DNA of 59,113 nt from an uncultured Lentisphaeria bacterium (GTDB lineage Bacteria; Fidelibacterota; UBA8477; JABMPR01), in NCBI GenBank assembly GCA_964469505.1, contig CAYXZO010000005.1, forward strand, positions 1 through 59,113, read 5' to 3'. Below the pieces are notes generated by a model that saw nothing but the letters and a program-made list of their open reading frames with translations, had not been told where the DNA came from and made no database searches. Shown here piece by piece: positions 2,921 to 55,925 of the stretch. Numbering within the stretch: position 1 is the stretch's first letter; every line of letters begins with the position of its first letter. A program made the translations under genes and the position numbers.

Positions 2921-3024
2921 TTCTTCCCATTGAGGCCACCGGATCTACTGGAAATTCAGGCGTCAGGATTTCTTCAGATAGTGCTTTCCCGTTTAGCTGG
3001 TACAGCTCGAAGTGCCGGTGTTTT

Positions 3025-4947
3025 TCAGGCCGGCTCTTTCCAATCACCGTTGAGCTTGATAATTTCCACCAATCTTTCCAGCGCCTGGGACTCGGGAATG
3101 TGACGGGCTACTATTTCGTGGCCTTTGTATAGGGTTATTAATCCCGGTCCGGCACCGACATATCCGTAATCCGCATCCGCCATTTCCCCGGGACCGTTAA
3201 CAATGCAGCCCATCACGGCAATTTTCAACCCCTTGAGATGTCCTAAACGGCTTTTCACTAGGGCCGTGACTTTTTCCAGGTCGAAAAGGGTGCGACCGCA
3301 GGAGGGGCAGGCGATGAACTCAGTGGTGGTGATCCGTACCCGTGCCGCTTGGAGAATCTGATATGTCAGGCGGCGCAAATAATGCGGCTGGGCTTGGGGA
3401 GCTTCCAGCCATATTCCATCGCCGAAACCTTCCAGCAATAAACCACCGGTTTGAGCCGCGGCGGCCAGGGTTAGACTGTTTTCGTCTAAATCAGCATATC
3501 TTAATTTGAACACTACCGGATAATGATTTTGGGTCTCCACTAGTTTCATTACAGCCCGTCGCAGCTCGTGATACGCGGCGGGGGAGGTTGCTTCCAGTAA
3601 GAGTATCGCCCCGGAAAAATTATTTAATTTTGAAATAACCTCGGTAGTTAAGCCGTCAGCAGTGCACTGCAGGAGAAAAGGCTGGGAGGTGGGAGTTGGT
3701 GGTAATTCTTCGGTAGTGATAATCCTTAGGGCTTGTGGAATGTCGGTAGTATTGGTTCTGTACAGTCCCCATAGCTCGACTGGCCAATCAGACGGAATGT
3801 CGTCTACCAAAGAAATATCCAGAAATTCAACCGCTTGTTCTTCTTTTTGCCAATTGCCCTGTGGGGTTTTTGAGTATCCCAAAGCAGACCAATTGGAGAT
3901 TACGGTATTTTTTCCGCTGAGGAAAACCCGAACCGGTTGAGAGCCTCCTAATGGTCCCACCGCTTTGGTGGGCCGGCGTTGGTAATGATAGGGATCTTTT
4001 AAAACAGATACTTTTTCTGATTCGATCGCTTGGGATTCGAAAGCCTCGACGACAGCCAGCAGCTGACGGGCTACCGGTACTTCGGCCAGGGGGTTTTCTG
4101 TGAGCGATACCCGAATGGTATCGCCTAAGCCGTCGGCCAGCAGAGCTCCGATGCCCACCGCTGATTTTACCCGCCCCTCCAGACCCGACCCGGCTTCGGT
4201 TACACCTAAGTGGAGAGGGTAGCAGGCCGACTTTTCAAGCATTCGCGCCGCCAACAAACGATAGGCGGCTACCATAACCACCGGATTACTGGCTTTTAAG
4301 CTGATAACCAGGTTGTGAAAGCCTTCTGTTCGACAAATCTCGATGAACTCCCAGGCCGATTCCACCATCCCTTCGGGGGTATCTCCGTACCGGTTCATTA
4401 TTCTTTCGGCCAAACTGCCGTGATTGACTCCTATGCGTAGCGCGGTGCCATACTCACGGCAAGTCTCCAGCAAGGGTCTCAGTTTGGCGTGAATGCGTTC
4501 CAGTTCCGCGGCTTCCTCAGCAGGGGAGTAATCGCCTTTGGTTACATGTTTACCCCCCACATAATTCCCGGGATTGATACGTACTTTGGCTACTATGCGA
4601 GCGGCTATCTCAGCCGCTTTAGGGGTGTAATGTATGTCGGCGATCAACGGCACCTGACATCCTTGACGTCGAACTTCCTTTTGGATTTCAGCCAAAGCTT
4701 CCGCGGCTTTCAGATTGGGAGCCGTGATACGGACGTAATCACATCCTGCCCGTGCCAGAGCCACTACCTGCTCTGCTGTGGCCTGGATGTCCAGGGTCGG
4801 GGTAGTAGTCATAGATTGGATGCGAATGGGGTAAGCGGCTCCTAACGGTATTCCTCCAATATCCACGGTGCGAGTGGGGAGGCGCTGCCGTTGATTATAA
4901 TTTACACAGTAAGGAGGGTAATTTGGGGTAACACTGTCCGTCTGCAT
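3025..4947 (-). CDS. ispG: (E)-4-hydroxy-3-methylbut-2-enyl-diphosphate synthase, long form
   Basis: IRIQSMTTT, PLIADIHY, RINPGN, RIGVNHGSL, YPLHLGVTEAG, GDTIRVSLT, CPSCGRT and MGCIVNGPGE [4Fe-4S] motifs; central insertion gives 640 aa. Confidence 0.96.
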   Translation of the reverse strand: MQTDSVTPNYPPYCVNYNQRQRLPTRTVDIGGIPLGAAYPIRIQSMTTTPTLDIQATAEQVVALARAGCDYVRITAPNLKAAEALAEIQKEVRRQGCQVPLIADIHYTPKAAEIAARIVAKVRINPGNYVGGKHVTKGDYSPAEEAAELERIHAKLRPLLETCREYGTALRIGVNHGSLAERIMNRYGDTPEGMVESAWEFIEICRTEGFHNLVISLKASNPVVMVAAYRLLAARMLEKSACYPLHLGVTEAGSGLEGRVKSAVGIGALLADGLGDTIRVSLTENPLAEVPVARQLLAVVEAFESQAIESEKVSVLKDPYHYQRRPTKAVGPLGGSQPVRVFLSGKNTVISNWSALGYSKTPQGNWQKEEQAVEFLDISLVDDIPSDWPVELWGLYRTNTTDIPQALRIITTEELPPTPTSQPFLLQCTADGLTTEVISKLNNFSGAILLLEATSPAAYHELRRAVMKLVETQNHYPVVFKLRYADLDENSLTLAAAAQTGGLLLEGFGDGIWLEAPQAQPHYLRRLTYQILQAARVRITTTEFIACPSCGRTLFDLEKVTALVKSRLGHLKGLKIAVMGCIVNGPGEMADADYGYVGAGPGLITLYKGHEIVARHIPESQALERLVEIIKLNGDWKEPA

Positions 4948-5042: not shown

Positions 5043-6374
5043 ATGCAAAAACCGTTAAGTGATCTCCATCGTCGAACATTAGCCACTCGACGTAAAAAAG
5101 TTCTCCGGTCCCTGGAAGGTGGGGTAGCCATTTTAAAAGGTGCACCACCACCCATTCGCTCCCATGACACTGAATACGCGTATCGGCAAGATTCTGATTT
5201 CTTGTATCTAACGGGATATACCGCACCGGGTGCTGCATGTATTCTCAATCCCAATAGCAGCAAACCCTTCACCTTGTTTGTGATGCCGAAAGACCCCGAG
5301 AAAGAAGTCTGGACCGGCCGACGTCTTAGTTTCGAAGAAACCAAAGCGCTCTTTGACGCGGATGAAGTCTTGGATATCGCGGTATTTGAAGAAGCAGCTT
5401 ACCAGGCTATGAAGGGGGCCAGGCGGGTATTTATTCCCTTTAATCACGATCAGGCCTTTCGGCATACCATGGTGGATATGCTGCACCGGGTTCAGCAAGA
5501 ATTACACCGGGTGGGGGAACCTCCCCAAGGTTTGGATCCCCTAGGAGCAATTGTCCACGAAATACGGCTTTTTAAAGACGAATTCGAACTGGAATGTATG
5601 CGTAAAGCAGCCAGGATCTCGGCAGAAGCCCACACTCTGGCTATGGAAGCTGCCCGACCGGGTATGTATGAATATGAATTGGAAGCCCTGATTGACTATC
5701 ATTTCCGGCGTTCAGGAGCTACAGGACCTTCGTACCTCACCATTGTAGCGGCTGGAGCCAATGCCACTGTCTTACACTATGTCCATAATCGGGACCGCCT
5801 GCAATCGGGACAGTTGGTGTTGATAGATGCTGGGGCTGAAGTGGAGGGTTATGCCGCCGACATCACTCGTACTTTTCCTGTGGATACAAAATTCGGCAGT
5901 TCGGCCCGGGCACTCTATGAGGTGGTATTGCGAGCCCAGAAAGAGGTCCTGGAGGCAGCCCGTCCGGGGGTAACCTTTGAGGAACTCCATGAGCTGGATG
6001 TGCGTTTGCTGTGCGAAGGGCTGATAGAACTGGGGCTGCTTGAAGAAAAGCTGGAAACAGCCATTGAATCAGGTAGTTATAAGAAATATTTCATGCACCG
6101 CACCGGCCATTGGTTGGGCTTGGATGTACACGATGTGGGGAATTATCGCTGCGATGGCCAATCGCGTAAACTGCAACCCGGTATGGTTTTCACTGTCGAA
6201 CCAGGACTTTACATCAATGAGGAGGCTGCAGTTCCCGACGAATTCAGGGGATTGGGAATCAGAATCGAAGATGATGTTCATATCACAGATAATGGAGCGG
6301 AGATTTTAACTCTGGGTACTCCTAAAGAAATCAAGGAAATCGAACAGCTGCGGGAGAAAGGATTCTCTGTATGA
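5043..6374 (+). CDS. pepP: Xaa-Pro aminopeptidase (M24B)
   Basis: YRQDSDFLYLTG, VLIDAGAE, ADITRTFP, HRTGHWLGLDVHD, TVEPGLY, GIRIEDD. Confidence 0.93.
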   Translation: MQKPLSDLHRRTLATRRKKVLRSLEGGVAILKGAPPPIRSHDTEYAYRQDSDFLYLTGYTAPGAACILNPNSSKPFTLFVMPKDPEKEVWTGRRLSFEETKALFDADEVLDIAVFEEAAYQAMKGARRVFIPFNHDQAFRHTMVDMLHRVQQELHRVGEPPQGLDPLGAIVHEIRLFKDEFELECMRKAARISAEAHTLAMEAARPGMYEYELEALIDYHFRRSGATGPSYLTIVAAGANATVLHYVHNRDRLQSGQLVLIDAGAEVEGYAADITRTFPVDTKFGSSARALYEVVLRAQKEVLEAARPGVTFEELHELDVRLLCEGLIELGLLEEKLETAIESGSYKKYFMHRTGHWLGLDVHDVGNYRCDGQSRKLQPGMVFTVEPGLYINEEAAVPDEFRGLGIRIEDDVHITDNGAEILTLGTPKEIKEIEQLREKGFSV

Positions 6375-7486
6375 GATACTCCTTTAAACACCTACTGTTT
6401 TTGTTGTTATTCATGATTCCCGGTTTTTATGGTTGTCGTTCCCAACCTCAACCGGGAGCCGATGAAATAATTCTGCTACTGGCCGCCAGCAACAACGGTG
6501 AAATAGATCCCTGCGGGTGAAAGTTTCATCCACTTGGCGGTCTCGCCAGGAAGACAACTCTTTTAAAGCAATACCAGAAAGAAGCTCCTACTTATTTTGT
6601 AGATGCAGGGGATGTCTTTTTCGCCCGTCCCCATTTACCATCTGCTAATCTTGAGTTTGAGATAAAAAAAGCCCGGCGCATTTTGGAAGCCTATAATATC
6701 ATGGGGTGCCGGGTTATGAACGTGGGCGTTAACGATTTAGCGGCCGGGAAAGATTTTATCCTGGAACTCCGGCGTGAAGCCAAATTTCCCTTCATTTCAG
6801 CGAATATTATTGATAAACAGAAACGGCAAGCCCTGTTTCCCCCTTATGAGATCATAGAAACGCCGTTAATGAAAATCGGATTCGTGGGGGTAACGGTTGG
6901 TGGGGGAGGTTTCCCGGATTTCTCCTTTGCCGATCCCATTACTACGGTTAAAAAATATGTGGCCCAGATCCGCCCCGAAGTAGATGTGGTGGTCATCCTG
7001 GCCAATGTCAACGACCGGCTCGAGCAGAGGTTGGCTAATATTGAGGGAGTAGATTTCATAGTTCGGTCCCGCACTCCCCGTTTATCCTCTACTCCGATGG
7101 TAATTAATCATGTGAATGTATTGCGATTAGGGAATCGTGGAAAATATGCGGGAATAGTGCATCTCCGTGAGCATCATCAGGGGCGATATTACCGGGACAT
7201 TTCCAGTAAACGGAACCGGTTGAAATTCATCCAGCGGCGACTAGCACGCCTGAAAAAGGAAATTCCCGCTGAAAAAACGCTAGAAGAATACTACCAGGAC
7301 AATCCGACCCGCTTGCGTCTGGTAAAGAACCTGAAGGGTGAACGGGACAAACTATTGAAGCAGCTTGGAGAAAAGGCTAATACTTTTTGGTTTGAGACGG
7401 TAGGATTGGACAAAAAGATCGCCGATGATCCGCAGATCGACAAACTGCTGAACGACGTTCGTCAACCTAAGTCCAAAACTGAGTAA
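6371..7486 (+). CDS. UshA-like (calcineurin-like fold) selenoprotein, putative lipoprotein; Sec at codon 50 (TGA 6518-6520); 371 aa. ORF track gives only 6683..7486
   Basis: ATG 6371 overlaps the pepP stop (ATGA). Frame is open MRYSFKHLLFLLLFMIPGFYGC...ASNNGEIDPCG-TGA-KFHPLGGLARKTTLL...VDAGDVF... and continues in frame into the 6683 ORF. Hairpin with GUCU loop starts 12 nt after the UGA. Confidence 0.85.
6533..6550 (+). promoter_or_regulatory. Bacterial SECIS-like apical stem-loop
   Basis: CUUGGCG-GUCU-CGCCAGG: 7-bp stem (one G-U), G-first loop 20 nt downstream of the in-frame UGA; resembles the GGUCU apical loop of E. coli fdhF SECIS. Confidence 0.7.
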
Positions 7487-7541: not shown

Positions 7542-7614
7542 GCGAGAGTAGCTCAGTTGGTAGAGCACCACGTTGCCAACGTGGATGTCGCGGGTTCGAG
7601 CCCCGTCTCTCGCT
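7542..7614 (+). tRNA. tRNA-Gly (GCC)
   Basis: GCGAGAG/CTCTCGC acceptor stem, D arm GCTCAGTTGGTAGAGC, anticodon arm CCACG-TTGCCAA-CGTGG, T loop TTCGAGC; CCA not encoded. Confidence 0.97.
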
Positions 7615-7638
7615 CGGTAACCAAGAGTCCCTCCGAAA

Positions 7639-28802: not shown

Positions 28803-28832
28803 AACCGAATGCATCTTCTCATTCGGTTTTTT
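28803..28832 (+). terminator. Intrinsic terminator-like hairpin immediately before the porV RBS
   Basis: AACCGAATG-CATCTTCT-CATTCGGTT (perfect 9 bp) then TTTT; RBS AAGGAG follows at about 28838. Confidence 0.65.
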
Positions 28833-28847
28833 ATTGAAGGAGTACAT

Positions 28848-30146
28848 ATGAGCCTTAAAAAACTTTGCTTGTTAATACTGGTTTTGATGGGTACTTCCCT
28901 GGTGCGAGCCCAGGGGACTGCTAGCGCTATATTTTTACTGATTTCTCCCGGCGCCCGAGCGGGTGGAATGGGTGAAGCTCAAGTAGCCGTGGCTAACGAT
29001 TCCTATGCCAGCTATTGGAATCCTGCCGGTTTGGCGTTTCAAAAAGGAGTTGAGATTTCAGGGATGCACGTTAATTGGCTCCCGGGGCTGGTCAATGATA
29101 TGTACTATGACTTCCTGGCCATACGAGTCCCCGCACCTAGTTATTACGGTGTAGTTGGGGGCCACATCATTTATTTGGATGCTGGAAAACAAACATGGAC
29201 CGATGATCAGGGAAATGAATTAGGAACCTTCAGTACTTATTTTACAGCGGCGGCTCTGAGCTATGCGACTATGTTAAGTGATAACTCATCAATTGGATTC
29301 AATTTCAAGGTGGTCTATCAGCACTTAGCAGATAGAGGTGTGACCGTAGGTTCCGAAAACACCAATCCAATTGCCACCAGCCTTGGCGTGGATATTGGTT
29401 ACCTTAAGCGGCACTGGCTGAGTGACCGATTGGATTTCGGAGTCTTACTTTCCAACGTCGGTCCTAAAGTCACTTTTAATGACAAAGCTCAGGCAGATCC
29501 TATGCCCACCAACCTAAAGGTGGGATGGAACTGGCGGGTGATTAAAGGGCAATACAATACACTGAACCTGGTCTATGATGTGAACAAACTATTAGTAGCC
29601 AGCTATCCCGATATGGATTGGGATGGTGATGGATTCGTAGGCGGCTATGACCAGCATGGCAATAAATACATTGTCAATAACGAGGTTTTACAAGGTGATT
29701 ATAACGCCAAGGGGCAAAGAGAAACAGCCCATACCGATCCATGGTATCTGGCTTTGGTTACTTCCTGGTTGGACGACTGGTACCTGGGTGGGGATCGGGA
29801 TCTGGATAACGACAAGAAAATCGGGGGTTACAATGCCGATACGGTAGCTGTAGCTGGCGGCAAATACAATTCATTGGGGCAATTGGAGGTCGGTAACGCT
29901 AAGCAGAGAAGTTTCAGCGCTGAATTACGTTCACTGGTTCATAACATTGGTCTCGAATACTGGTATAATCAAATGTTTGCTATCCGAGGGGGATTCTATT
30001 ACGACTATGAAGGTAAAATCATTGCTCCGACGCTGGGAATCGGCTTGCGTTACGGCAACTACGGCTTTGACTTCGGCTATATAGTGGAGAAGCAGGATCA
30101 TCCCCTGAACAACACTATGCGCTTTTCGCTGCTCATCAAATTTTAG
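28848..30146 (+). CDS. porV: Type IX secretion outer-membrane barrel PorV family, with EF-hand-like insertion
   Basis: ATG after AAGGAG; AIFLLISPGARAGGMGEAQVAVANDSYASYWNPAGLA, YVNWLPGLVNDMYY-like region, NVGPKVTF, PMPTNLKVG, GLEYWYNQMFAIRGG, HPLNNTMRFSLLIKF with terminal Phe. Confidence 0.85.
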   Translation: MSLKKLCLLILVLMGTSLVRAQGTASAIFLLISPGARAGGMGEAQVAVANDSYASYWNPAGLAFQKGVEISGMHVNWLPGLVNDMYYDFLAIRVPAPSYYGVVGGHIIYLDAGKQTWTDDQGNELGTFSTYFTAAALSYATMLSDNSSIGFNFKVVYQHLADRGVTVGSENTNPIATSLGVDIGYLKRHWLSDRLDFGVLLSNVGPKVTFNDKAQADPMPTNLKVGWNWRVIKGQYNTLNLVYDVNKLLVASYPDMDWDGDGFVGGYDQHGNKYIVNNEVLQGDYNAKGQRETAHTDPWYLALVTSWLDDWYLGGDRDLDNDKKIGGYNADTVAVAGGKYNSLGQLEVGNAKQRSFSAELRSLVHNIGLEYWYNQMFAIRGGFYYDYEGKIIAPTLGIGLRYGNYGFDFGYIVEKQDHPLNNTMRFSLLIKF

Positions 30147-30159
30147 CTCTCGTTTTTAA

Positions 30160-33030
30160 ATGAAACTTCGGCGAGTCCTGTTGGCGGGGGCCGCTATTGT
30201 TGCAGCCCTGGGAAATTCGAAAATCATTGCAGCTCCCCTAAACGCCCAGGAGCTGACAATTGCGGCCATTCGAATTTCATTTCAACCGGATCAGGACCCC
30301 GCAACCGCCGGAAATGGTCTCTTTGTGCTCTCCCCGGATTCACTCCCCGGTTGTTCCGAGCGACGCCTGGATCCGCCCCCACACGATAAAGAATATTTTA
30401 AAGACCACCTGAGAGCAGCCGCATTCTATTGGAGCAAGGTAAGCCGGGGAAACGTGACGATCGATACTTTACACTTGGCAATATTTCCACCTGGTGACAC
30501 TGCAGCCTATCAACTTGCTCATCCAATGTCATATTACCACCCATACATGGATTTGGGGGATACTCTATCCCATCTGGTGGAATTAATCCAGGAAGCGGTA
30601 AATCTGGCAGACGCCGATGTGGATTTCAGTGCCTTTAATACCTTTATTTTCTTTCATGCCGGCTTAGGAGGTGATTTCGCTTTCGTGCTGGATCCCACTC
30701 CCGGCAACATTCCCTCCACCTATTTAAGCCAATCAGATCTCGAAGCTTACGGGGGAATAGCAACTGACGAAGGACCGTTAACGAATGCTATTCTATTACC
30801 CGAAACCCAGAATTTTCTCCAATTTGCGGAAACTCGCACCCTTTTCAATCCCCAACCATGCAATTACCAGTTTGCCCTCAACGGTACGGTAGCGCTGTTG
30901 CTAGGATTCAGAATCGGCCTGACTCCGCTGTATGATCTTTATACCGGGAGAAGTCATGGCGGTCGCTTTGCTTTGATGGATCAGGGTAGCAATAATGCTC
31001 ATGGGCTGGTACCAGCTCCCCCCATGGCCTACAATCGAATTCAGGCCGGATGGGAAGAACCTCAGGTAGCCAATATCGGAGATAGTGTGAGTTTAGATAT
31101 TGATGGTCCACCGGTTAAAATTCCCATCGGTCCCGCGGAATACTATCTCATTGAAAATCGCCAACGCAACCTGGAGCAGCCTATCGGTTGGGAGACCTGG
31201 GTTGACAGCATAACCAGCGACACCTTTTCAGTACAGCTTTCTCCACGAGGGGTAGTGCTCCAGGTTGATGAACAAACGGCAGGACTGCCTGGAAACGGTT
31301 TGTTGATTTGGCATATTGCCGAATTCGCTCGTGGGCCTGATGATAATCCCAACGGCTTGGAACCGTATTTAATCAGCCTGGTGGAGGCCGACGGGGCACC
31401 GGATATCGGCTACCAGAGCCGGATTTTATTTGCCGATTTCCTGGAGACCGGCTGGTGGTTTGATCCCTGGTTTGCCGGAAACCAGGGGTGGTTCGATCTG
31501 AATCGTATCGAACCAGTAATAGGGGACAGTTTGCTGCGATTTACCTCTACCACCCATCCGGCAACCATAAGCAAGCGAGATTACCCAACCTATTTGCGGG
31601 TGGAGAATATCTCGGCTCCCGGGCGGACTATGCACTTCCGCGTTGGCTCCGATCGTGTTGTTCCTTTTCCTGAGGGAGCCGAATTAATTGGAATCGGAAG
31701 CGACTCCACGGGAGAGCCGCTGGTGTGGTTGGATGATGGTCAGGTTTATCTCGTCGGTTACAGTCTTACATCAGATACACTTAAGCCGATTGTTCAATTC
31801 TCCCGGAGACGTGTTTTTAGCTCACCTTCGGATAGTCTGATAGGTTTTTCGGATCCCATATTTGTGATCTTCAATGGCCGGGGTAATGCATTCTATAACT
31901 ATTTGACCGACACGCACATCGAGGATACTACGGGAGGCCCGGTCAAGCAAATTATCCGCACTGAGGATTCGCTTGCATATCTTGTCAGTAAAAACCAATC
32001 CAGTACGATTTTCACCATTCCTGTTGATCTGAGCGCTCCACCGACAGCCCAGGTTACCATTCCTTTGGAAGTGGAGCGTTTCTACCGCTTCGATCCGGAT
32101 TGGGCCTGGGCTACGTCAGATTCGTTGTATACTCCCGTTTCACATCCTTATGCCATTAGTGGAGACGTTTATCAGCCGGTTGAAGTTTTTGAAATGCAAC
32201 CTTCAAGTATGCATCGAACCCCAGTTGGATGGCTGTATGTGGATGAGGATAATCAGTTGGTATTCAGGGCAATAGGGGATACCATTAAAGTTCTGCGGAC
32301 TGCTTTTACCGGCACATTTCTACCTTTTGACATACCCACCGAGCAGGGGCTGGAGGGCATATTTTTTACCACCGGGTATGGTGAGGTCATCAGCAGTAGC
32401 GGTCTAGCGTATTATGGTTCTCCTTTCGTTCTGGATGGTGAACCGTTGGCAAGGCCGGTCATCGTTTCAGCTTTTGATGCTCCAATCGCTTTCTTTTTCC
32501 CTTATGAGGATGGCTATGGGGTTTATGATCTACAGGGTAAGAGGTTGGAAAGAACAATCCTCCCTGAGAGTCCCGCTATTAAAGATGTGTTCTATTCAAA
32601 TCGTGAAACGTTAATAGCTAGCGAATTTTATCTCCTGCGTCTACCCCTTGAGAGTGAATCATCAATTAATCCAAACTTCGCCATAAATTCCCTTCGGGAA
32701 CGAGCAGCTTGGTGGAGTGATTCGTCATTAACTCATGAGGTGGCTTTGATTGAGCCCGGCTCAGGATTCATCTATCCCAATCCGATTCGGGGAAAGACTG
32801 CCACCGTCCGCGTGCATTTAGGGGCGGTAACCTCCTGGCGGATACGCATTTTTACCACTGCGGGCAACGAAGTTATCGATGTTGCCCCTGTGCCCGTTTC
32901 GTCTCATGCTGTAAATGAGTGGCGCTGGGATGTGAGTAATCTCTCCAACGGGCTTTATCTGATACAGCTCGAGGCGGAAGGAAATGGGAAAAAAGAACAG
33001 GTTTTAATCAAAGCGGCGGTGGTGCGGTGA
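30160..33030 (+). CDS. T9SS type A CTD-containing protein with M6 (immune inhibitor A)-like domain lacking HExxH
   Basis: IFFHAGLG, GTVALLLGFRIGLTPLYD in place of GVFAHEYGHxLGLPDxYD, ALMDQGS, EYYLIENRQ, GLLIWHI, LVEADG; C-terminal IYPNP...NGLYLIQL...KAAVVR. Confidence 0.8.
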   Translation: MKLRRVLLAGAAIVAALGNSKIIAAPLNAQELTIAAIRISFQPDQDPATAGNGLFVLSPDSLPGCSERRLDPPPHDKEYFKDHLRAAAFYWSKVSRGNVTIDTLHLAIFPPGDTAAYQLAHPMSYYHPYMDLGDTLSHLVELIQEAVNLADADVDFSAFNTFIFFHAGLGGDFAFVLDPTPGNIPSTYLSQSDLEAYGGIATDEGPLTNAILLPETQNFLQFAETRTLFNPQPCNYQFALNGTVALLLGFRIGLTPLYDLYTGRSHGGRFALMDQGSNNAHGLVPAPPMAYNRIQAGWEEPQVANIGDSVSLDIDGPPVKIPIGPAEYYLIENRQRNLEQPIGWETWVDSITSDTFSVQLSPRGVVLQVDEQTAGLPGNGLLIWHIAEFARGPDDNPNGLEPYLISLVEADGAPDIGYQSRILFADFLETGWWFDPWFAGNQGWFDLNRIEPVIGDSLLRFTSTTHPATISKRDYPTYLRVENISAPGRTMHFRVGSDRVVPFPEGAELIGIGSDSTGEPLVWLDDGQVYLVGYSLTSDTLKPIVQFSRRRVFSSPSDSLIGFSDPIFVIFNGRGNAFYNYLTDTHIEDTTGGPVKQIIRTEDSLAYLVSKNQSSTIFTIPVDLSAPPTAQVTIPLEVERFYRFDPDWAWATSDSLYTPVSHPYAISGDVYQPVEVFEMQPSSMHRTPVGWLYVDEDNQLVFRAIGDTIKVLRTAFTGTFLPFDIPTEQGLEGIFFTTGYGEVISSSGLAYYGSPFVLDGEPLARPVIVSAFDAPIAFFFPYEDGYGVYDLQGKRLERTILPESPAIKDVFYSNRETLIASEFYLLRLPLESESSINPNFAINSLRERAAWWSDSSLTHEVALIEPGSGFIYPNPIRGKTATVRVHLGAVTSWRIRIFTTAGNEVIDVAPVPVSSHAVNEWRWDVSNLSNGLYLIQLEAEGNGKKEQVLIKAAVVR

Positions 33031-44397: not shown

Positions 44398-46620
44398 GTG
44401 GCTAAAGACATTTTCGGCAACCACAAAGTAAATACCGCCATCATCATCGTATTGGCTTTTATGTTTGTCTCAGTCATCTATTTCCCCGATCGAATTTGGA
44501 GACATGAGCGGGAGCTTCGGGATATTGCCCGTTTCAGGATGGAGGCCATCAATCAAGGGGAAAAACTGTTCTATATCTTGACCGAGGAATACACCACTAG
44601 GCCAGATATCCTGTTCCATGTAGTAAACGCTTCCCGCGATAGTGCCCTGGAGAGACTCGGCGATTCCAATGCAACATTCCCAGAGACTCTGCGGTACGTC
44701 TTTCCAGGTAAACAGCTTACCATTAAATACACTCCTGAGTACCGTCAGAAATATGTCGAAGAACACGTAGCCTTATTCAAGAAACTAAAACCCAATCATT
44801 ATTTCCCACCAGAACAGGCCAAAGCCTTCATCGAAACAGTGAAGGTGTACTTCGATCGGGGCAATTTCGTAGGCGAACAATCCGTGCGGCTTGGGAAAGA
44901 CAGTCTGAGATTTACTGTCCCCGACAAGTATGACATCCTTTATCAGAACGGCAAATTTAGGATGTTTAACGTACTCACCGGTAGTGCTACTGAAGATCCT
45001 GGGTTCGCTAATCCATTGGTTAATGCGGTCCTGGATTCCCTGGAACGCAATCCGGATTTAAGTGGAGAGGTCGTATTTACCGGATTGTACCATGAGCCGA
45101 TAACCTTTTCATATACTGTTCCCGACAATTTCTCGCAGCTACTGGAACGCTCTAAAACCCAGCTTAAAAAATTCTTTAAAATCGATCCTCTGGACTCTCT
45201 GGCATACGGTGACACTCTTTACAGCATAGCTCTGGAGAAGTTTTTCACTTTCGACTCCATTCCGGAGCAATTCGAGATTACTTACCGGGATACCACCGGG
45301 GATACTGTGATCGTGAATGTCCCGGTTGATATGGAAGGGATGCAGGACGGTCTTGATAAACGGCGTAACACTCTTTATAAAGCACTCTCCGGTGGCTATC
45401 GCGAGCCCAATCCCATTATCGCTCAGAAAATCATCGATGCCGTCAAGGACTCTTTGGCCAGCGATTCGGTGTTTATCGGCACTCATAAGATTACCCTAGA
45501 CTTGTCTGAAATTCCCTTCAAAATCAGAATTGACCGTACCATTCCGCTGAACCAAATCCAGATCAATAAGGATATGTACACCCGTCTGGAACCGTGGAAG
45601 ATTGGAGTAAATCTGGATTCGGTAGCTGTGGAAGCCGTGGAGTATGTGGCTGATACATTGATGAAGAGCAGGGATTTCAAAGATTGGCAAATCTATGCTG
45701 CTGAAGGGGATTCCCTTAATTTGTTCATCCCCGAAGACTTCCTGAGAATGTACGATGACATGAATCTGCGTTTGTATAAGGCCCTAACCGGTGAATACAC
45801 CAACATTCACGACTATGCATACAATGTGATTCGTAAAGTTGAAGCTTTAGCACAGCAGGACTCCGGTTCTTATTTCGGTGAACATGTGTTAGATATTCCC
45901 GCTGATACGATCGTGGCGCGGGTTGGCTCCGACTATCCGGAAATATATGACTCTACCTTCGTGGTTTATAAAGATACGGTGGTCCAACTTCCCGATAGTA
46001 GTTTTTACGGTGTTTGGTTCCGGCTGCAGAGATATGCCGTACCGGTAGAACAGCCAGACACTCTGCCCTTCGTAAAAGCTGTTGACGGCCAGTTGTATTA
46101 CAATTTCCATCAAGCTGACTCCACCCAGGATTTCATGGTGTTTGAGTTGCGGGATAAACGACACGAAAAGGCCTTCTGGGGGGACAATCGTTATCTGGTG
46201 AGCTTCAACAACGACAGCACTCTGGATGCGGTTTTCCTCTTGATCAGTGACACCACCGGAGCTGATTCCGCCTTGCAAGCTAGTTGGAAACCCTTCACCG
46301 TCGTTTCACCTGAATTCGTGGTGGGGCCGGAAGAAAAGAGTCTGATTATGGCCAAAGACTCTTTCTACGCCTGGGTTGACACAGTTGTAGCTTTAAAGTA
46401 CCGTAAAATTCAGATTAAAAAGCCGTACAAGTTCGCTAATGAACTCAAATACTGTCCTGTGACCGGTTTACCCTTTAGAATTACTGTTAGGTACATGGTC
46501 AACCTGCGGATTGAATCGCCCATCGAGGAGAAAGTCACTTTCAGACGCTATCTGTTCTTCACGGAAGTCGATACCAACCACGGCTATATCCAGGACGGTG
46601 AGCCTAGCTGGTCCAAGTGA
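44398..46620 (+). CDS. Large membrane-anchored hypothetical protein with diverged internal repeats
   Basis: 740 aa, single N-terminal TM, recurring LY(K/N)(A/V)L(T/S)G motifs, C-terminal CPVTGLPF...HGYIQDGEPSW. Confidence 0.75.
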   Translation: MAKDIFGNHKVNTAIIIVLAFMFVSVIYFPDRIWRHERELRDIARFRMEAINQGEKLFYILTEEYTTRPDILFHVVNASRDSALERLGDSNATFPETLRYVFPGKQLTIKYTPEYRQKYVEEHVALFKKLKPNHYFPPEQAKAFIETVKVYFDRGNFVGEQSVRLGKDSLRFTVPDKYDILYQNGKFRMFNVLTGSATEDPGFANPLVNAVLDSLERNPDLSGEVVFTGLYHEPITFSYTVPDNFSQLLERSKTQLKKFFKIDPLDSLAYGDTLYSIALEKFFTFDSIPEQFEITYRDTTGDTVIVNVPVDMEGMQDGLDKRRNTLYKALSGGYREPNPIIAQKIIDAVKDSLASDSVFIGTHKITLDLSEIPFKIRIDRTIPLNQIQINKDMYTRLEPWKIGVNLDSVAVEAVEYVADTLMKSRDFKDWQIYAAEGDSLNLFIPEDFLRMYDDMNLRLYKALTGEYTNIHDYAYNVIRKVEALAQQDSGSYFGEHVLDIPADTIVARVGSDYPEIYDSTFVVYKDTVVQLPDSSFYGVWFRLQRYAVPVEQPDTLPFVKAVDGQLYYNFHQADSTQDFMVFELRDKRHEKAFWGDNRYLVSFNNDSTLDAVFLLISDTTGADSALQASWKPFTVVSPEFVVGPEEKSLIMAKDSFYAWVDTVVALKYRKIQIKKPYKFANELKYCPVTGLPFRITVRYMVNLRIESPIEEKVTFRRYLFFTEVDTNHGYIQDGEPSWSK

Positions 46621-46641
46621 GGACCGGCCCGACGGACAATC

Positions 46642-47583
46642 ATGCTGGGAATTGCCGTCGACAACCAAGCATTGCACTATGCCCAGTTAGTGGACACCGG
46701 CGGGATAACTTCCATTGAAAGTGTTGGTTCGCTCGCACTGACAATTCCCACGGAAGCCTTTCTCACCGCTCCGCTACCGGCTTCATTCACCCATACCTTG
46801 GTCCAGCTTCGGGAAAAACTGGAGTTTCCCGATCGGCGGGTAATCTGCGTACTCCCCATGAGATGGGTGCCCCATTGTTTTCAACGAATGGATAAAGAAT
46901 TACCCGAATCCGATTGGCAGAAATTTTTGGACTGGCAAGGCGGCACCATCATGGAGGTGAATCCCCGTGAATATCGGTTGATACACCAGGAACTTGAGTT
47001 GGACAACGCCACCGACGTAAGGTATTTCATAAGTGTGGCATTGCCCGTAAAACTGCACATCAAACTGAAAAATGCTTTCGAGCAAGCCGATTGGAATCTG
47101 GAAAAACTCATTCTGGAATCGGAGGCGCTTGGTAACTATTTGTTACTGGATTCCATCGAGGCTGAAAGTCAGGATCTCACGGGGCTCTTCAGAACCCGTA
47201 ACCCCCAGGAAGGTCAATTTCTTCTTTTTAAAAACCAAGAATGGGTGGGGGAGACCTACTTGTTTCGTGACGCCGAAGAAACCTGGCGCACTGAGGTTGT
47301 CTGGACGGCCGTGAACGACACCTTCGCCATAGTCGATGAAGTGCGTGATGCCCTTAATGGCTTACCATCCACCCAGGACTCCCCATTTTTAAACTGGTAT
47401 TACCTGTGTCAAGCGGACGATATGCCTGAGTGGCGTGAAAATCTGGAACATTTGGGGGTGGGCCGACCGCTCTTCATGGAAGATTTATTTACGCTCAGAG
47501 ATATGCCGGAGGAAAAGCTCTCTACCTTGGCCGGCGCCATGGGAGCCTTAATTCCTTTATTGCCGTTAAATCATGCGGATTAA
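46642..47583 (+). CDS. PilM-like (actin-fold) protein, divergent
   Basis: MLGIAVDNQALHYAQL and FISVALP...AFEQADWNLEKLILESEAL resemble PilM segments; followed by an INLL-starting gene. Confidence 0.5.
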   Translation: MLGIAVDNQALHYAQLVDTGGITSIESVGSLALTIPTEAFLTAPLPASFTHTLVQLREKLEFPDRRVICVLPMRWVPHCFQRMDKELPESDWQKFLDWQGGTIMEVNPREYRLIHQELELDNATDVRYFISVALPVKLHIKLKNAFEQADWNLEKLILESEALGNYLLLDSIEAESQDLTGLFRTRNPQEGQFLLFKNQEWVGETYLFRDAEETWRTEVVWTAVNDTFAIVDEVRDALNGLPSTQDSPFLNWYYLCQADDMPEWRENLEHLGVGRPLFMEDLFTLRDMPEEKLSTLAGAMGALIPLLPLNHAD

Positions 47584-48595
47584 CCTACTCACCGATAAGG
47601 GTGTTCTGGCGGCAGTCCCTTTTCAGAGGCCGGAAGCCCCGGCTCTACCTGAAATAGAACCGATACCTTCAACAAAACCATCGGTAGCACCCCCTACCAA
47701 AGCGATTCCCTGGCGACTGGTAGCCATAGGTTTCTCTCTGGCTGCGGTTGTATTTCTACTGGTGGGCTATGCAACGAACTGGTTCGATGGAGGGCATTTC
47801 TTTGGCTTGAATCGTCCTTCACAGGAGAGTGGAGAAATAAAGTACGCAACGATCAAACAAGTTCTCCTGGAAGACAGTTTGCGTCATGTTCTAAGAGATA
47901 GAGTGTTACCCGATTCTCTCTTCAATGCTCTATTGCCGCCGCCTTCGAGAGATACGGGATTCATGTACGCTGAGATTCTACTGGAGACCTTGGCAACGAC
48001 AAGCGGACCCGTTGAAACGCAGACCACGGCTCCTAAACCCCAGCCAGTCTACGGAGGTCCCATTTGGCAACAAGAGAATCGCGGATTGCTGCTTTTAGCA
48101 GCCCACCTGGCGCAAACAGTGGATTCTTTGCAAATCCAGGGAAAGGTTAAACTTTCCAAGAGCAGGATAGATTTGCAGTTGACGGTCCCCAATAGCCGCT
48201 CTAAAACCACCCTTGATAGTATTCTCCAGCGTTTTTCAGGGGGACGGTTTGCCTGGCGCCTTGAGGGGGAGACTCTTCGACTGAACCAACCTTTAAACTT
48301 GATTTTACCTCCTTTAGCTTCTCCCGGCTATCATGGAGGCCTTTGGACACTCCTGGATTCGCTGCTCCTGCCGTATGATCGTTGGCTGGAGGCCCTGGAA
48401 GTAGATACGGCGCGGGGAATTGCCAATAACCCGGCTCAGTTCTATTTCCGCATGTCACCCAAAACAGCCGCAGAGATGTTCCGGACTTGGGCTAACAGTC
48501 CTGCTAATTACGCTATTGACTCCCTTTATCTGGTTGTTACTGCCCGCGACCAAAGCGTGACTGTTGCACTTCATTTTCTGCAAGGAGAGCTATGA
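47573..48595 (+). CDS. PilN-like bitopic membrane protein, divergent
   Basis: Starts MRINLL (PilN INLLP PilM-binding motif), Pro-rich linker, single TM, periplasmic region. Confidence 0.5.
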   Translation: MRINLLTDKGVLAAVPFQRPEAPALPEIEPIPSTKPSVAPPTKAIPWRLVAIGFSLAAVVFLLVGYATNWFDGGHFFGLNRPSQESGEIKYATIKQVLLEDSLRHVLRDRVLPDSLFNALLPPPSRDTGFMYAEILLETLATTSGPVETQTTAPKPQPVYGGPIWQQENRGLLLLAAHLAQTVDSLQIQGKVKLSKSRIDLQLTVPNSRSKTTLDSILQRFSGGRFAWRLEGETLRLNQPLNLILPPLASPGYHGGLWTLLDSLLLPYDRWLEALEVDTARGIANNPAQFYFRMSPKTAAEMFRTWANSPANYAIDSLYLVVTARDQSVTVALHFLQGEL

Positions 48596-50928: not shown

Positions 50929-52320
50929 ATGTTCAAGAATTTACAACCACCTACTGATGGTGAAAAAATCCGCAAGGCAGGTGGCGAGTTACAAGTCCCG
51001 GACAAACCGGTTATCCCTTTTATCGAAGGTGATGGGACCGGGCCGGATATCTGGCGCGCCACCCGTAGAGTTCTCGAAGCGGCGGTCGAAAAGGCTTATG
51101 GTGGTAAGCGTAGTATCATCTGGTTTGAGGTTTACGCTGGTGAAAAGGCTTTCCGCAAGTTTGGGGAATGGCTACCGCAGGATACCGTGCAAGCCTTCCG
51201 GGAATATCTAATAGGCATCAAGGGACCGTTGACAACCCCGGTTGGGGGCGGCATCCGTTCTTTGAATGTCGCCCTACGTCAAACTCTGGATTTATACGTG
51301 TGCTTGCGTCCCGTAAAGTATTATGATGGAGTTCCTTCGCCTGTTAAGCACCCCGAATACGTGGATATGGTGATTTTCCGTGAAAATACGGAAGATATTT
51401 ATGCTGGTATAGAGTGGGCGGAGGGCACGCCGGAGGTAAAGAAAGTCATCCGTTTCCTCCAGGAGGAAATGGGGGTTAAAAAGATTCGTTTCCCCGAAAC
51501 CTCTGGTATCGGCATCAAACCGGTTTCGCGGGAGGGTACCGAACGACTGGTCAAGGCGGCCATCGAGTATGCTTTGAAGTACGGTCGCAAGTCGGTGACC
51601 ATGGTTCACAAAGGCAATATCATGAAATTCACTGAAGGCGCCTTCAAGAATTGGGGATACGCTGCAGCTACTCGCGACTATCGCGATAAAGTTGTTACCC
51701 AGCGGGAAGCCTGGATTCTAGACAATCGCGAGCGTTATCCCAATGCCAGCATCGAAGACATCGCCAAGATGATTGAACCAGGCTATGGTATGATGATTCC
51801 CGACAAGCAAGCCGAAATCCGCCGGGAAGTGGAAGAAGGGCTGAAGTTGTGGCCTACCCACGGCGATGGAAAATGGAAAGATAAACTTTTGATTCGGGAT
51901 ACTATTGCCGACATAACCTTGCAGCAAATACTCACCAGAGCCAAGGAATTCGATGTCATTGCAACCTTGAACCTTAACGGTGATTATTTGTCCGATGCCC
52001 TGGCGGCGCAGGTGGGTGGTATCGGCATTGCTCCCGGAGCTAACATCAACTATGAGTCCGGCCACGCCATCTTTGAAGCAACCCACGGCACTGCACCGAA
52101 ATATGCCAATCTGGACAAGGTTAATCCTGGCTCACTGGTACTGTCCGGAGCCTTGATGCTCGAGTACATGGGGTGGACGGAAGCTTCGGAGCTGATCCAT
52201 AAGGCTATGAGCAAAACTATTGCGGCCAAAACCGTGACATACGATTTTCACCGTCTCATGGAAGGTGCTGCCCTGTTGAAATGCTCCGAATTCGGAGATG
52301 CACTAATCGCCAATATGTAA
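50929..52320 (+). CDS. icd: Isocitrate dehydrogenase (NADP, E. coli-type) with insertion
   Basis: [70 protein letters not shown]. Confidence 0.96.
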
Positions 52321-52340
52321 AATCTGCGCTTGGAATCGGT

Positions 52341-52376
52341 AACAAAAAGCCCCGCTTCCTGGCGGGGCTTTTTGTT
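52341..52376. terminator. Bidirectional intrinsic terminator
   Basis: Perfect 15-bp inverted repeat AACAAAAAGCCCCGC-TTCCTG-GCGGGGCTTTTTGTT between convergent icd and the EEP gene. Confidence 0.92.
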
Positions 52377-52395
52377 ATTCTCGACAACACTTAAA

Positions 52396-53421
52396 TCAAT
52401 AATGCCAAGCTATCTTACAGAACACCATCAGATGGTCAGAGTACCCCCCCAAATAATTGCCGCCGGCATACATCCGAAAGGGCCACCCCTTGAAACGTCC
52501 GCTGGTTTGGAGAAGATACGGGCGTAGAAACTGATGAGTTGAATTAGTCACCCAGGAAAAACCCTTATCATCCAGCATGCCTTTGGAGATGATGATCTGA
52601 TCGATGACCACCCATTGGCCGCGGTGCATGTAGGTCCCGGCATCAGGATTCAGATGGAGCGGCCAGGTAGTGTTGTACAGATCCAGGCTCAGCATTTTAT
52701 TATAGCTAGGTCGCGCCCCTAATACCTTCAGAACCGATGCATTGTCGGGATGGTCATTAAGATCGCCCACGATGAGAATATCAGCTGCCGGGTGGGTCTG
52801 CAGAATCACGTTAATACGGGCCCGTAAAACTGCGGCTGCTTTACGACGTTTGGGGTCCGTTTCTTTGGTTCCACCCCAACGGGAGGGCCAGTGGTTGACG
52901 AACACATAAAGTCTGGGGGCGTCCGGTGCATTGCGACGTTCTATGGGGATCAGTACCGCTTCCACGATTTCACGGGTACGATCCCCACCTGCCAGAAGAA
53001 CCGGATGGAAACGTAACTCCTTGAGATAGAATAAGGTAGAATCGTAAATCAAAGCACAATCAATGCCCCGCTCATCAGGCGAATCCCGCTCAATAACCGC
53101 ATAATTTTTCCGCTGGAGATAACCGCGGACCAGCTGCAGGAGAACGGCCTTGTTTTCAATTTCGGCCAGCCCTAAAAGATCGGGATTTACTTCGTTTATT
53201 ACCTGAGCTAAGTGTTCAAACTTGTTTCTCAGGCGTTCTTCCGTCCATTGATATTTGCCGGTAGGAGTGAAGTCCTCATCGCGGGTGAGCGGTTCGTCTA
53301 CCGTATCAAACAGATTCTCGACGTTCCAGAATGCGGCCAGGTATGTCTTTTCTCCTGCATGAAGGGTGATGGACAATCCCGCTAATAAAAGTGAAAGTAC
53401 CCATTTATGAACCTTACGCAT
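52396..53421 (-). CDS. Exported endonuclease/exonuclease/phosphatase (EEP) family protein
   Basis: Signal peptide; FWNVENLFD, LAEIEN, DERGIDCALIY, VNHWPSR, GDLND, DQIIIS, GGYSDHL. Confidence 0.9.
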   Translation of the reverse strand: MRKVHKWVLSLLLAGLSITLHAGEKTYLAAFWNVENLFDTVDEPLTRDEDFTPTGKYQWTEERLRNKFEHLAQVINEVNPDLLGLAEIENKAVLLQLVRGYLQRKNYAVIERDSPDERGIDCALIYDSTLFYLKELRFHPVLLAGGDRTREIVEAVLIPIERRNAPDAPRLYVFVNHWPSRWGGTKETDPKRRKAAAVLRARINVILQTHPAADILIVGDLNDHPDNASVLKVLGARPSYNKMLSLDLYNTTWPLHLNPDAGTYMHRGQWVVIDQIIISKGMLDDKGFSWVTNSTHQFLRPYLLQTSGRFKGWPFRMYAGGNYLGGYSDHLMVFCKIAWHY

Positions 53422-53423
53422 GA

Positions 53424-55283
53424 TTACATTTCCTTTTCAGCAATTAGGAGCTTACCCGGTACGAAACGCGCTGATTTGACCAAATCAGGGGAGACATAAA
53501 CGACTCCCTCTTCATCATGGGGGGCCAGGTACCGGGTATGAACTGATTTCAAACCGCCCATCCAGGCACGTTTATCGGAAATGTACACCAGATCTCCCTC
53601 TTCGGCGGCCATCCGCTCCATATCCTTTTTGGAAAAACGGGCGCCGGAGGAGGGAAGAGTGGCATCCTCCCGCCAGTTGAGCAGTACCTTTTCACCTTCG
53701 CGGTCGTTGGTCGGACCACCTTTGAAGTGTTCACGAGCTTTTTGTAGAGTCCAGGCGGTGAACCCCTGGAGCTTTTCTTCTTTAGGCGGTTTGGTGAGGT
53801 AAGTCGCCACCACTGCCACCGCTAGGCATACAAAAGTATTATACAAGGCACGGATATAGGTATAAGGATGATCGGGGTCCATAGCAATACCATGGGAGAA
53901 AGGTTTAATAAAGATTTCAGGATAATGGTTTCCGAGCCACATCAACGTAGCACCACCTACAAAGGTAGCAATGGCGGCCGGGGTCGTGTATCGTTTCCAG
54001 AAAATTCCTAAGAAAATAGCCACCACTAATGGGGGAGTCATGGTGCTGTGGAAGAAAGCGTGGGCCTCGTACAAGGTGGGGAATTTCATGAAGAAAGTTA
54101 CACTTACGGCGCCCAGAATGGTTGCGAGAGCGGAAACCCCCATGGCGGCTCGCAGGTAGTGTTTATCGGAACGATTTGGCAACAGCGGACGATAGATATC
54201 GTTTATGGTTACGGCTGCAACGGCGTTAATCAGGGTATCCACCGTAGACATCAAGGCTGCCGCCACCGCTGCAATTAGAAAGGCAAATACCGCCTGGCTA
54301 TGGGAAATGAGATAAGCGACTTCGGTGAAAACGTGGTCCGGTTTAATGGCCGGATTCCACTCACCCGGCATCAGATTAGCAATGGCTCTTCCAATCCAAC
54401 CAGCGTTACTGACAACGATGGTGGAGATAGGCAGCAGCACCAGGACATTGAAAGCAGCGGCTTTACGGCCCTCATCTACGGATTTGGTAGCCATGAAGCG
54501 CATTACCAGGCCCTGATTCATAAAAAGGAATCCGATGGAACCGGCCACGCCGTCCTGCCAGAAAATCCCCACGAAGTTGAAGTCAGAGGGCTTATTGAAA
54601 TCTGCCAGCGGTAGCTTGAATTCCGCTGGTAGGGCGCTCCAAAAACGGTGAAAACCGCCTACATGTTGGAGTCCCAACCCTAGAATCAACAAACCGGCAA
54701 AAAGGAGAATAAAGCCCTGGGCTAGGTCGGTAAAAATTACCGCCGTTTGCCCCCCGAATGTGATATAGATTCCGGCTACTAAGGCCACCACCCAAACGAT
54801 TACGTGCAGGTTCCAGCCAAGGATGGGTTCCAGGGTTTTACCCATGGTCAGAAAACCGATTGCGATGTATCCGATCATATAGCCCAGAATAGCGATGGTA
54901 GCCAGAATCCGGGTGACTTTGTTAAACCGGCGTTCAAGGTAGTCGGGAATGGACTGAATCCGGGTGTAGTAGACAATGGGTAACCAACCAAATAGGAAGA
55001 ACGGCATGAAGAACCAATCGTTCATATAGGTCATTGTGGAACTGAAGCCGTACTGGTAGGCTTTAGCGGAATATTTTAAAAATGAGTGACTACCCACACC
55101 GGTGGCTACGATGGACATGGTTATTAGCCACCAGGAGAAGCGACGGCCACTAAAGAAAAAATCGCTGGTTGTTTGGTTATATTTAGAGAAATAAGAACCA
55201 AAACCTAGAATAATGACGAAATAGCCGATAATGATGGCCCAAAAGATTGGCGATGTGTGAATTTCTGGCCCCATAACAATCAC
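53424..55283 (-). CDS. Sodium:solute symporter (SSS) with soluble C-terminal extension
   Basis: FFFSGRRFSWW, YLERRF, GGQTAVIFTDLAQ, AALMSTVDT, many TMs; about 95-aa polar C-terminal domain. Confidence 0.9.
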   Translation of the reverse strand: MIVMGPEIHTSPIFWAIIIGYFVIILGFGSYFSKYNQTTSDFFFSGRRFSWWLITMSIVATGVGSHSFLKYSAKAYQYGFSSTMTYMNDWFFMPFFLFGWLPIVYYTRIQSIPDYLERRFNKVTRILATIAILGYMIGYIAIGFLTMGKTLEPILGWNLHVIVWVVALVAGIYITFGGQTAVIFTDLAQGFILLFAGLLILGLGLQHVGGFHRFWSALPAEFKLPLADFNKPSDFNFVGIFWQDGVAGSIGFLFMNQGLVMRFMATKSVDEGRKAAAFNVLVLLPISTIVVSNAGWIGRAIANLMPGEWNPAIKPDHVFTEVAYLISHSQAVFAFLIAAVAAALMSTVDTLINAVAAVTINDIYRPLLPNRSDKHYLRAAMGVSALATILGAVSVTFFMKFPTLYEAHAFFHSTMTPPLVVAIFLGIFWKRYTTPAAIATFVGGATLMWLGNHYPEIFIKPFSHGIAMDPDHPYTYIRALYNTFVCLAVAVVATYLTKPPKEEKLQGFTAWTLQKAREHFKGGPTNDREGEKVLLNWREDATLPSSGARFSKKDMERMAAEEGDLVYISDKRAWMGGLKSVHTRYLAPHDEEGVVYVSPDLVKSARFVPGKLLIAEKEM

Positions 55284-55817: not shown

Positions 55818-55925
55818 ATTGATTTAATTCATTTATTAACTGTGGTTGCGCAGGTATAGGCTCGCAGTTATACTTCCATGTTTTTTGCCAGAGCTAGCAG
55901 AATGAAGCAGGAGGAAAAGAAATAC

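Follow-up and report, generated by a model that had tools for sequence, protein, structure and literature searches.

The gene downstream of pepP

We analysed a 59,113-nucleotide stretch of DNA, here called the window, that forms positions 1 to 59,113 of contig CAYXZO010000005.1 from an uncultured Lentisphaeria bacterium placed by GTDB in the Fidelibacterota (NCBI GenBank assembly GCA_964469505.1). Its subject here is the reading frame that follows pepP on the forward strand and is interrupted by one TGA codon, which we read as selenocysteine (Sec). The features of this locus are as follows.

6371–7486, forward strand: coding sequence of the predicted selenoprotein precursor, 371 residues plus the stop, with Sec at codon 50; a single in-frame TGA, otherwise open
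6371–6436, forward strand: predicted signal peptide M1–G21 and lipobox C22 (TGT, 6434–6436), with positively charged R2 and K6, a hydrophobic core, then F-Y-G-C
6512–6520, forward strand: Cys48-Gly49-Sec50 motif, TGC GGG TGA, with the Sec codon at 6518–6520, preceded by D-P
6533–6550, forward strand: hairpin resembling a selenocysteine insertion sequence (SECIS), CUUGGCG-GUCU-CGCCAGG, 7 bp in the minimum free energy fold, beginning 12 nt past the UGA
6521–7483, forward strand: body of the mature domain, a degenerate 5'-nucleotidase/calcineurin-like N-terminal domain (GGLAR, VDAGD, FPFISAN), then a helical hairpin (~residues 275–335), a final strand and a helix
5043–6374, forward strand: pepP, Xaa-Pro aminopeptidase, with AMP_N and Peptidase_M24 Pfam domains on the identical gene in locus L001

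Translated in full, 6371–7486 comprises 372 codons whose sole internal stop is the TGA at 6518–6520; 321 sense codons follow it before the frame ends at a TAA (7484–7486). The precursor begins MRYSFKHLLFLLLFMIPGFYG-C22 and continues RSQ...ASNNGEIDPC48G49*50KFHPLGGLARK..., where the asterisk is the TGA. Its start codon overlaps the pepP stop (TGA, 6372–6374) as ATGA, and the two genes are probably translationally coupled. The mechanical list of open reading frames (ORFs) splits the gene into two pieces in the same frame, a 49-codon ORF at 6371–6520 and a 267-codon ORF opening at a TTG at 6683. A sequence-only reading made earlier from this DNA had proposed that the ORF caller, by starting at 6683, hides a lipoprotein with a CxU motif. 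Its coordinates and residues (ATG 6371, FYG-C22, NNGEIDP-C48-G-U50 and 321 further codons) are all correct, and the ORF list agrees with it on the late start, while also giving the 49-residue piece as an ORF of its own. Of the 45 open frames in the window that reach 200 codons, 21 stop at TGA, pepP among them, which shows that the standard genetic code is in use here, as that reading had also held.

Cysteine occurs only three times in the predicted protein, at C22, C48 and C113, and the translation contains no CxxCH motif, as the sequence-only reading had noted. That reading also took the protein to be tethered to the membrane, and sequence rules give a probable lipobox, F-Y-G-C22, with an atypical F at position −3. 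Of the 34 orthologues, 32 have a Cys that closes the hydrophobic segment, and those of L031 and L041 do not.

To label these relatives, we use L numbers for related DNA loci and P numbers for database homologue proteins. Orthologous DNA was gathered from the database homologues of the downstream ORF and by scanning representative genomes, one for each GTDB species, with a pattern (30 loci); the scan was seeded with a 5-sequence alignment, as a query with a single protein gave no match and a 12-sequence alignment was too divergent. Consistent with recoding, we found TGA at the Sec codon in all 34 distinct orthologous loci, which come mostly from metagenome-assembled genomes (MAGs) of Marinimicrobia (SAR406/Fidelibacterota). 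The encoded proteins are 27–45% identical to the window protein, and the genomes range in GC content from 28% (L041) to 49%. All 34 loci share one layout: signal peptide, conserved beta-strand, [GD]PCG, the TGA, K/R and, in most, GGL-x-R. The same split in so many distinct relatives is far beyond chance, and L001, an independent assembly of the identical sequence, has the same TGA.

The residue aligned with Sec50 is Cys in more distant homologues. This is so for P0020–P0023, P0025, P0027, P0029, P0034 and P0043, where the motif reads CGC (PCGC) except for a CRC variant in P0029, and in locus L040 the codon at the Sec position is TGC. The D-P-C48-G49-TGA50 of the window aligns with the PCGC of these proteins, just past the first beta-strand. 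The conservation of the TGA effectively excludes a pseudogene, an assembly error and reassignment of the code. Together, these results make it very likely that 6371–7486 forms a single gene whose product is a selenoprotein of 371 residues. It falls in the UshA-like CxU/PCGU family, within a haem-less lipoprotein branch that is conserved across Marinimicrobia.

A SECIS-like hairpin next to the UGA

The segment behind the UGA folds into the hairpin listed above. Counting the U of UGA as +1, a conserved GGUCU lies at +22 to +26 (6539–6543), and GGCGGUCU is unchanged in 33 aligned sequences. Two Gly codons make up the loop and hardly vary (GGC in 34/34, GGT in 33/34), whereas six other invariant Gly columns of the alignment use all four codons, which argues for a constraint on the RNA and not on the protein. 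The hairpin is kept in the genome with 28% GC, and the hairpin region of the window is more stable than 98% of its synonymous recodings, placing it in the top 2%.

We compared this element with the SECIS of Escherichia coli fdhF, in which the loop nucleotides G23 and U24 are the contacts of SelB. In both, the hairpin lies within the coding sequence directly after the UGA, GGUCU starts 21 nt after the U of the UGA, and G23 and U24 are in the loop. By contrast, the stem in the window has 7 bp whereas fdhF has a longer interrupted helix, and no bulged U is evident in the window hairpin. We infer that SelB, carrying Sec-tRNA(Sec), would bind the hairpin at 6533–6550 and insert Sec50. The site-specific recoding of UGA to Sec that the sequence-only reading had proposed is thus supported by the TGA in 34 of 34 loci, the distant Cys homologues, the fdhF-like hairpin and the family match described below.

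No Rfam family corresponds to the hairpin, the sole match near the site being a chance hit to PinT (E 9.8), and searching the window with a covariance model built on the SECIS brought up no further copy. A scan of the window for further genes with an in-frame TGA returned only adjacent independent genes, for example NrdR/ABC and 44398/46642. Promoter and terminator scans gave background levels.

Family, fold and possible chemistry

The window protein matches the NCBIfam profile NF041198 ('UshA_like_PCGU', UshA-like (seleno)protein) with E 8.3e-63, over residues 16–365 and profile positions 7–376 of 519. As in that family, P-C-G-U stands at the same position of the same degenerate 5'-nucleotidase-type N-terminal domain, and Sec and Cys forms coexist in the family. 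The window protein differs from it in lacking the last ~130 profile positions (about 390–519), which hold CxxCH multihaem motifs in P0020, P0022 and P0023; many Cys homologues have such C-terminal CxxCH multihaem regions. Its branch also differs in coming from Marinimicrobia, in its lipoprotein signal and in a charged helical-hairpin C terminus, which is seen in a structural model of P0021 and assigned to the window protein by alignment. A second UshA-derived selenoprotein profile, NF049981 (UshA-like (seleno)protein family 2), is matched weakly at residues 35–125 (E 6e-11), with 42 bits against a cutoff of 140; its motif is CxxU (PMC13188914), whereas that of the window is CxU.

The family is that of Zhang and Gladyshev and has been described since 2008. 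The study of the Global Ocean Sampling (GOS) data from that year gives 'COG0737 UshA-like, CxU' as one of 20 major selenoprotein families, treats it as characterised before, and reports 76 Sec sequences, from 20 samples, next to 92 Cys homologues (PMC2398784). It appears again, with NF041198, in PMC13188914, and reviews of 2022 and 2026 cover it. The window gene therefore joins a known selenoprotein family; what it brings is a corrected annotation, not a novel type of system. Of the 'hidden' and 'uncharacterised' selenoprotein announced by the sequence-only reading, the recoding stands and the novelty does not, as the family is already catalogued (PMC2398784, PMC13188914).

To place the fold, we used the family profile, which matches 5'-nucleotidase and SoxB structures in the range E 1e-29 to 1e-20, the former at ~E 1e-27 to 3e-29 and the latter at ~E 2e-20. 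The AlphaFold (AF2) model of the Cys homologue P0021, with a predicted local distance difference test (pLDDT) of 81.5, has 5'-nucleotidases as its best fold matches in the PDB (Foldseek E 5e-18 to 3ivd and 2e-16 to 1ush). In this model the N-terminal domain is followed by a helical hairpin and then by a last strand and helix, and the C-terminal region of the window protein aligns with these parts. In Pfam, the window protein has neither PF00149 nor PF02872, and nothing at E <=1 save one spurious weak match. Like E. coli UshA and other 5'-nucleotidases (1ush, 3ivd, CD73), it has the N-terminal calcineurin-like fold with the GG-x-AR helix, in a presumed periplasmic protein. However, UshA D41, H43, D84, N116, H117, D120, H217, H252 and Q254 correspond to S40, N42, D81, V120, N121, A124, N212, R234 and P236 of the window protein, so that 6 of the 7 metal ligands are replaced (only D81, UshA D84, is kept), as are the catalytic H117 and D120. 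The Asn at the position of UshA H217 is conserved in 31 of 34 orthologues. The window protein ends ~100 residues past the N-terminal domain and lacks the C-terminal domain that binds the nucleotide substrate, and it gains C-G-U within a six-residue loop inserted after strand 1, just behind the position of the UshA D-x-H metal motif. With the metal ligands, the catalytic pair and the nucleotide-binding domain gone, the protein is, as judged from sequence, no nucleotidase but a scaffold derived from UshA.

Among characterised relatives that are not of this family, the highest score goes to the thiosulfohydrolase SoxB (TIGR04486; structures 2wdc and 4uwq), which has the same fold and is matched with E 1.5e-16. 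SoxB is a periplasmic enzyme of sulfur chemistry, and the window protein may be one too. By contrast, it scores 59.8 bits against the TIGR04486 cutoff of 550, the di-manganese site of SoxB is absent from it, and no sox genes lie nearby.

Gene neighbours in a sister clade of Marinimicrobia point to a related chemistry. There, two genes, one for a rhodanese with a membrane anchor and one for a membrane protein of the DoxX/MauE type, come directly after the selenoprotein gene in 10 distinct loci; in L031 this pair (3055–3930) lies directly upstream of the selenoprotein gene, giving 11 distinct loci in all. This sister-clade trio suggests a sulfur or thiol redox module. We observed the rhodanese/DoxX adjacency in L008 (4882–5801), L026–L030, L033, L036–L039 and L031, down to ~35–45% identity. 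The neighbourhoods of the Cys homologues P0020 (OmpA, DUF4398, TPR), P0025 and P0022 were uninformative.

Given the multihaem fusions of the relatives, the sister clade's rhodanese and DoxX partners and the similarity to SoxB, our best guess is a periplasmic role in redox or sulfur transfer based on the Cys/Sec pair. The precursor would be exported and lipidated at Cys22, which would place it at the periplasmic face of a membrane. As the most likely mechanism, Cys48 and Sec50 would form the active centre and cycle between a selenenylsulfide and the thiol/selenol pair, or carry sulfane sulfur. The substrate would be a small periplasmic sulfur compound or other redox compound, and no nucleotide would be hydrolysed. 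Electrons would come from the fused multihaem cytochrome domains where relatives have them, and from another partner in the lineage of the window. A more specific proposal is possible but tentative. The haem-less branch might be a distinct Sec-containing periplasmic enzyme found across Marinimicrobia, in which the 5'-nucleotidase/SoxB fold has given up its binuclear metal centre for the Cys-Gly-Sec loop, which provides a chalcogen-based site for the transfer of sulfur or thiols; in the sister clade it might work with the rhodanese and a quinone-linked protein of the DoxX type. If so, the 'orphan SelD' of SAR406 genomes would serve genuine Sec decoding.

Another explanation, which we consider unlikely, is that the selenoprotein is real but its Cys-Gly-Sec loop supplies thiolate and selenolate ligands to a new metal centre, or binds a soft metal or metalloid, in a metal-dependent hydrolase, a binding protein or a chaperone. 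The loop is well placed for this: it stands in for the D-x-H motif at the entrance to the former binuclear site, and D81, together with the Asn in place of H217, could supply the rest of a coordination sphere. In addition, only three major marine selenoprotein families are without the conserved Cys-based redox motifs seen in the rest, and the UshA-like family is among them (PMC2398784). However, the C-x-U spacing with Gly between the two residues fits a selenenylsulfide, the multihaem cytochrome fusions of relatives point to electron transfer, and the rhodanese and DoxX neighbours of the sister clade point to sulfur or thiol chemistry.

Counter-evidence, other readings of the UGA, and surroundings

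Several results weigh against a selenoprotein with this role. selA, selB, selD and tRNA-Sec are absent from the 59-kb window and from ~300 kb of related loci, and a 2016 survey lists three SAR406 single-cell genomes with SelD and without SelA or SelB (PMC5029168). Family-wide, the stability of the hairpin relative to synonymous recodings is modest (median fraction 0.20, mean z −1.0). Classical covariation within it is weak, since its stem also codes for the conserved peptide LGGLAR, and there are two stem registers. The score against NF041198 is 212.7 bits, below the curated cutoff of 275. The structural model is that of the Cys homologue P0021 and not of the window protein. The proposed function rests on motif logic and on gene neighbours known from the sister clade; in the window, neither a rhodanese nor a DoxX gene adjoins the selenoprotein gene.

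The shortfall against NF041198 matches the missing C-terminal region. The Marinimicrobia orthologues score 215–229, whereas the haem-bearing P0020 (275.7) and P0022 (283.4) pass the cutoff.

For the Sec machinery, tblastn with E. coli SelB and SelA gave no matches in the window or in any of the loci, and ARAGORN scans of the window and of 34 related loci were negative for tRNA-Sec. ORFs of the size of SelA, SelB and SelD at 50929–55283 encode isocitrate dehydrogenase, a protein of the endonuclease/exonuclease/phosphatase family and a sodium:solute symporter. The SAR406 single-cell genomes of the 2016 survey were incomplete, and on the Sec machinery of Marinimicrobia we found nothing in the literature beyond its 'orphan SelD' table. 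On the present data, we infer that SAR406 has the Sec trait.

It is highly improbable that the TGA is a true stop, whether in a disrupted gene, through an assembly error or between two products, a 49-residue lipopeptide and a truncated cytoplasmic protein from 6683. Every automatic gene call in the databases agrees with such a split (P0001–P0018, and the 49- and 267-residue genes in L001), and no Sec machinery turned up in the window. However, 34 of 34 loci, drawn from separate samples and assemblies, have TGA at the identical codon, the sequence to either side of it is under purifying selection, and the independent assembly L001 repeats the TGA. The downstream piece would lack the signal peptide and the first beta-strand, distant homologues read through the position with Cys, and the synonymous positions of the GGC and GGU codons of the loop are frozen.

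It is equally improbable that the UGA is read as a standard amino acid (Trp, Gly or Cys), through a reassigned code or near-cognate read-through: although the database entry P0019 has W at the Sec codon, this is the choice of a gene caller where the DNA has TGA, and the long window frames that end in TGA follow the standard code, the hairpin with the loop and spacing of fdhF is conserved, and homologues have only Cys, the usual counterpart of Sec, at that position.

The public gene calls that we found for Marinimicrobia (P0001–P0019) are all split, truncated at the 5' end or wrong at the residue encoded by the UGA. In L001 the gene is called as two, at 2689–2838 and 3001–3804, and P0019, from a contig with 28% GC, has Trp at the TGA, apparently because the caller used genetic code 4. 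Since the window protein scores below the NF041198 cutoff, the NCBI pipeline would not name it either. As a result of the miscalls and the score shortfall, an exported selenoprotein in every related Marinimicrobia genome retrieved from the species representatives (30 loci) is recorded as a cytoplasmic hypothetical protein. The main value of the present finding thus lies in annotation, and its biological value is modest. It indicates that Sec decoding is widespread in SAR406/Fidelibacterota, an abundant lineage of the ocean, and it offers a clean natural case of a metalloenzyme fold whose metal site appears to have been swapped for a Cys/Sec loop. The small haem-free version should also be easier to handle biochemically than the multihaem forms.

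The surroundings of the gene are those of a housekeeping locus. The order IspG, PepP, selenoprotein, tRNA-Gly, HTH, PCMT and PspC is common to the window and to MAGs of Candidatus Neomarinimicrobiota, and the adjacency of pepP and the selenoprotein gene is kept in L002–L006. The rest of the window encodes MreBCD-PBP2-RodA, SHMT, NrdR, HrcA-GrpE-DnaJ, leucyl-tRNA synthetase (LeuRS) and, for the type IX secretion system, PorV and a protein with a Por_Secre_tail domain. The sequence-only reading had assigned the locus to the Fibrobacterota–Chlorobiota–Bacteroidota (FCB) group as a housekeeping locus, and the PorV, MreBCD and DnaJ genes bear this out.

Upstream of pepP and divergent to it, 3025–4947 on the reverse strand encodes an IspG/GcpE of 640 residues with an extra GcpE_C domain, an arrangement kept in related loci. 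Downstream, a tRNA-Gly(GCC) lies at 7542–7615 on the forward strand. Nearly all loci of the two clades have this tRNA gene no more than ~1.1 kb past the selenoprotein gene, but in differing orientation, forward in the window and reverse in most clade-A loci. At 28809–33030, a homologue of the type IX secretion protein PorV is followed by a 956-residue protein with Por_Secre_tail, which fits an FCB-group/Marinimicrobia origin. At 44398–48595, three consecutive ORFs on one strand, of 740, 313 and 340 residues, are without a Pfam match at E 1e-5; a TGA separates the first two, which share a frame, but the second has its own ATG.

The window LeuRS (55878–58376) is at most 72–73% identical to those of species representatives, the best being Neomarinimicrobiota bin.509 and SI053_bin15 (L047, L048), so that, by this protein, the lineage of the contig is without a close representative in the species-representative collection. 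The GC content of the window is 48.7%. L010, L020 and L022, from MAGs that are likewise labelled 'uncultured Lentisphaeria bacterium', carry a selenoprotein of the Marinimicrobia type with 40–45% identity, with a tRNA-Gly downstream in L010 and L022, and the taxonomic labels of these three may be unreliable.

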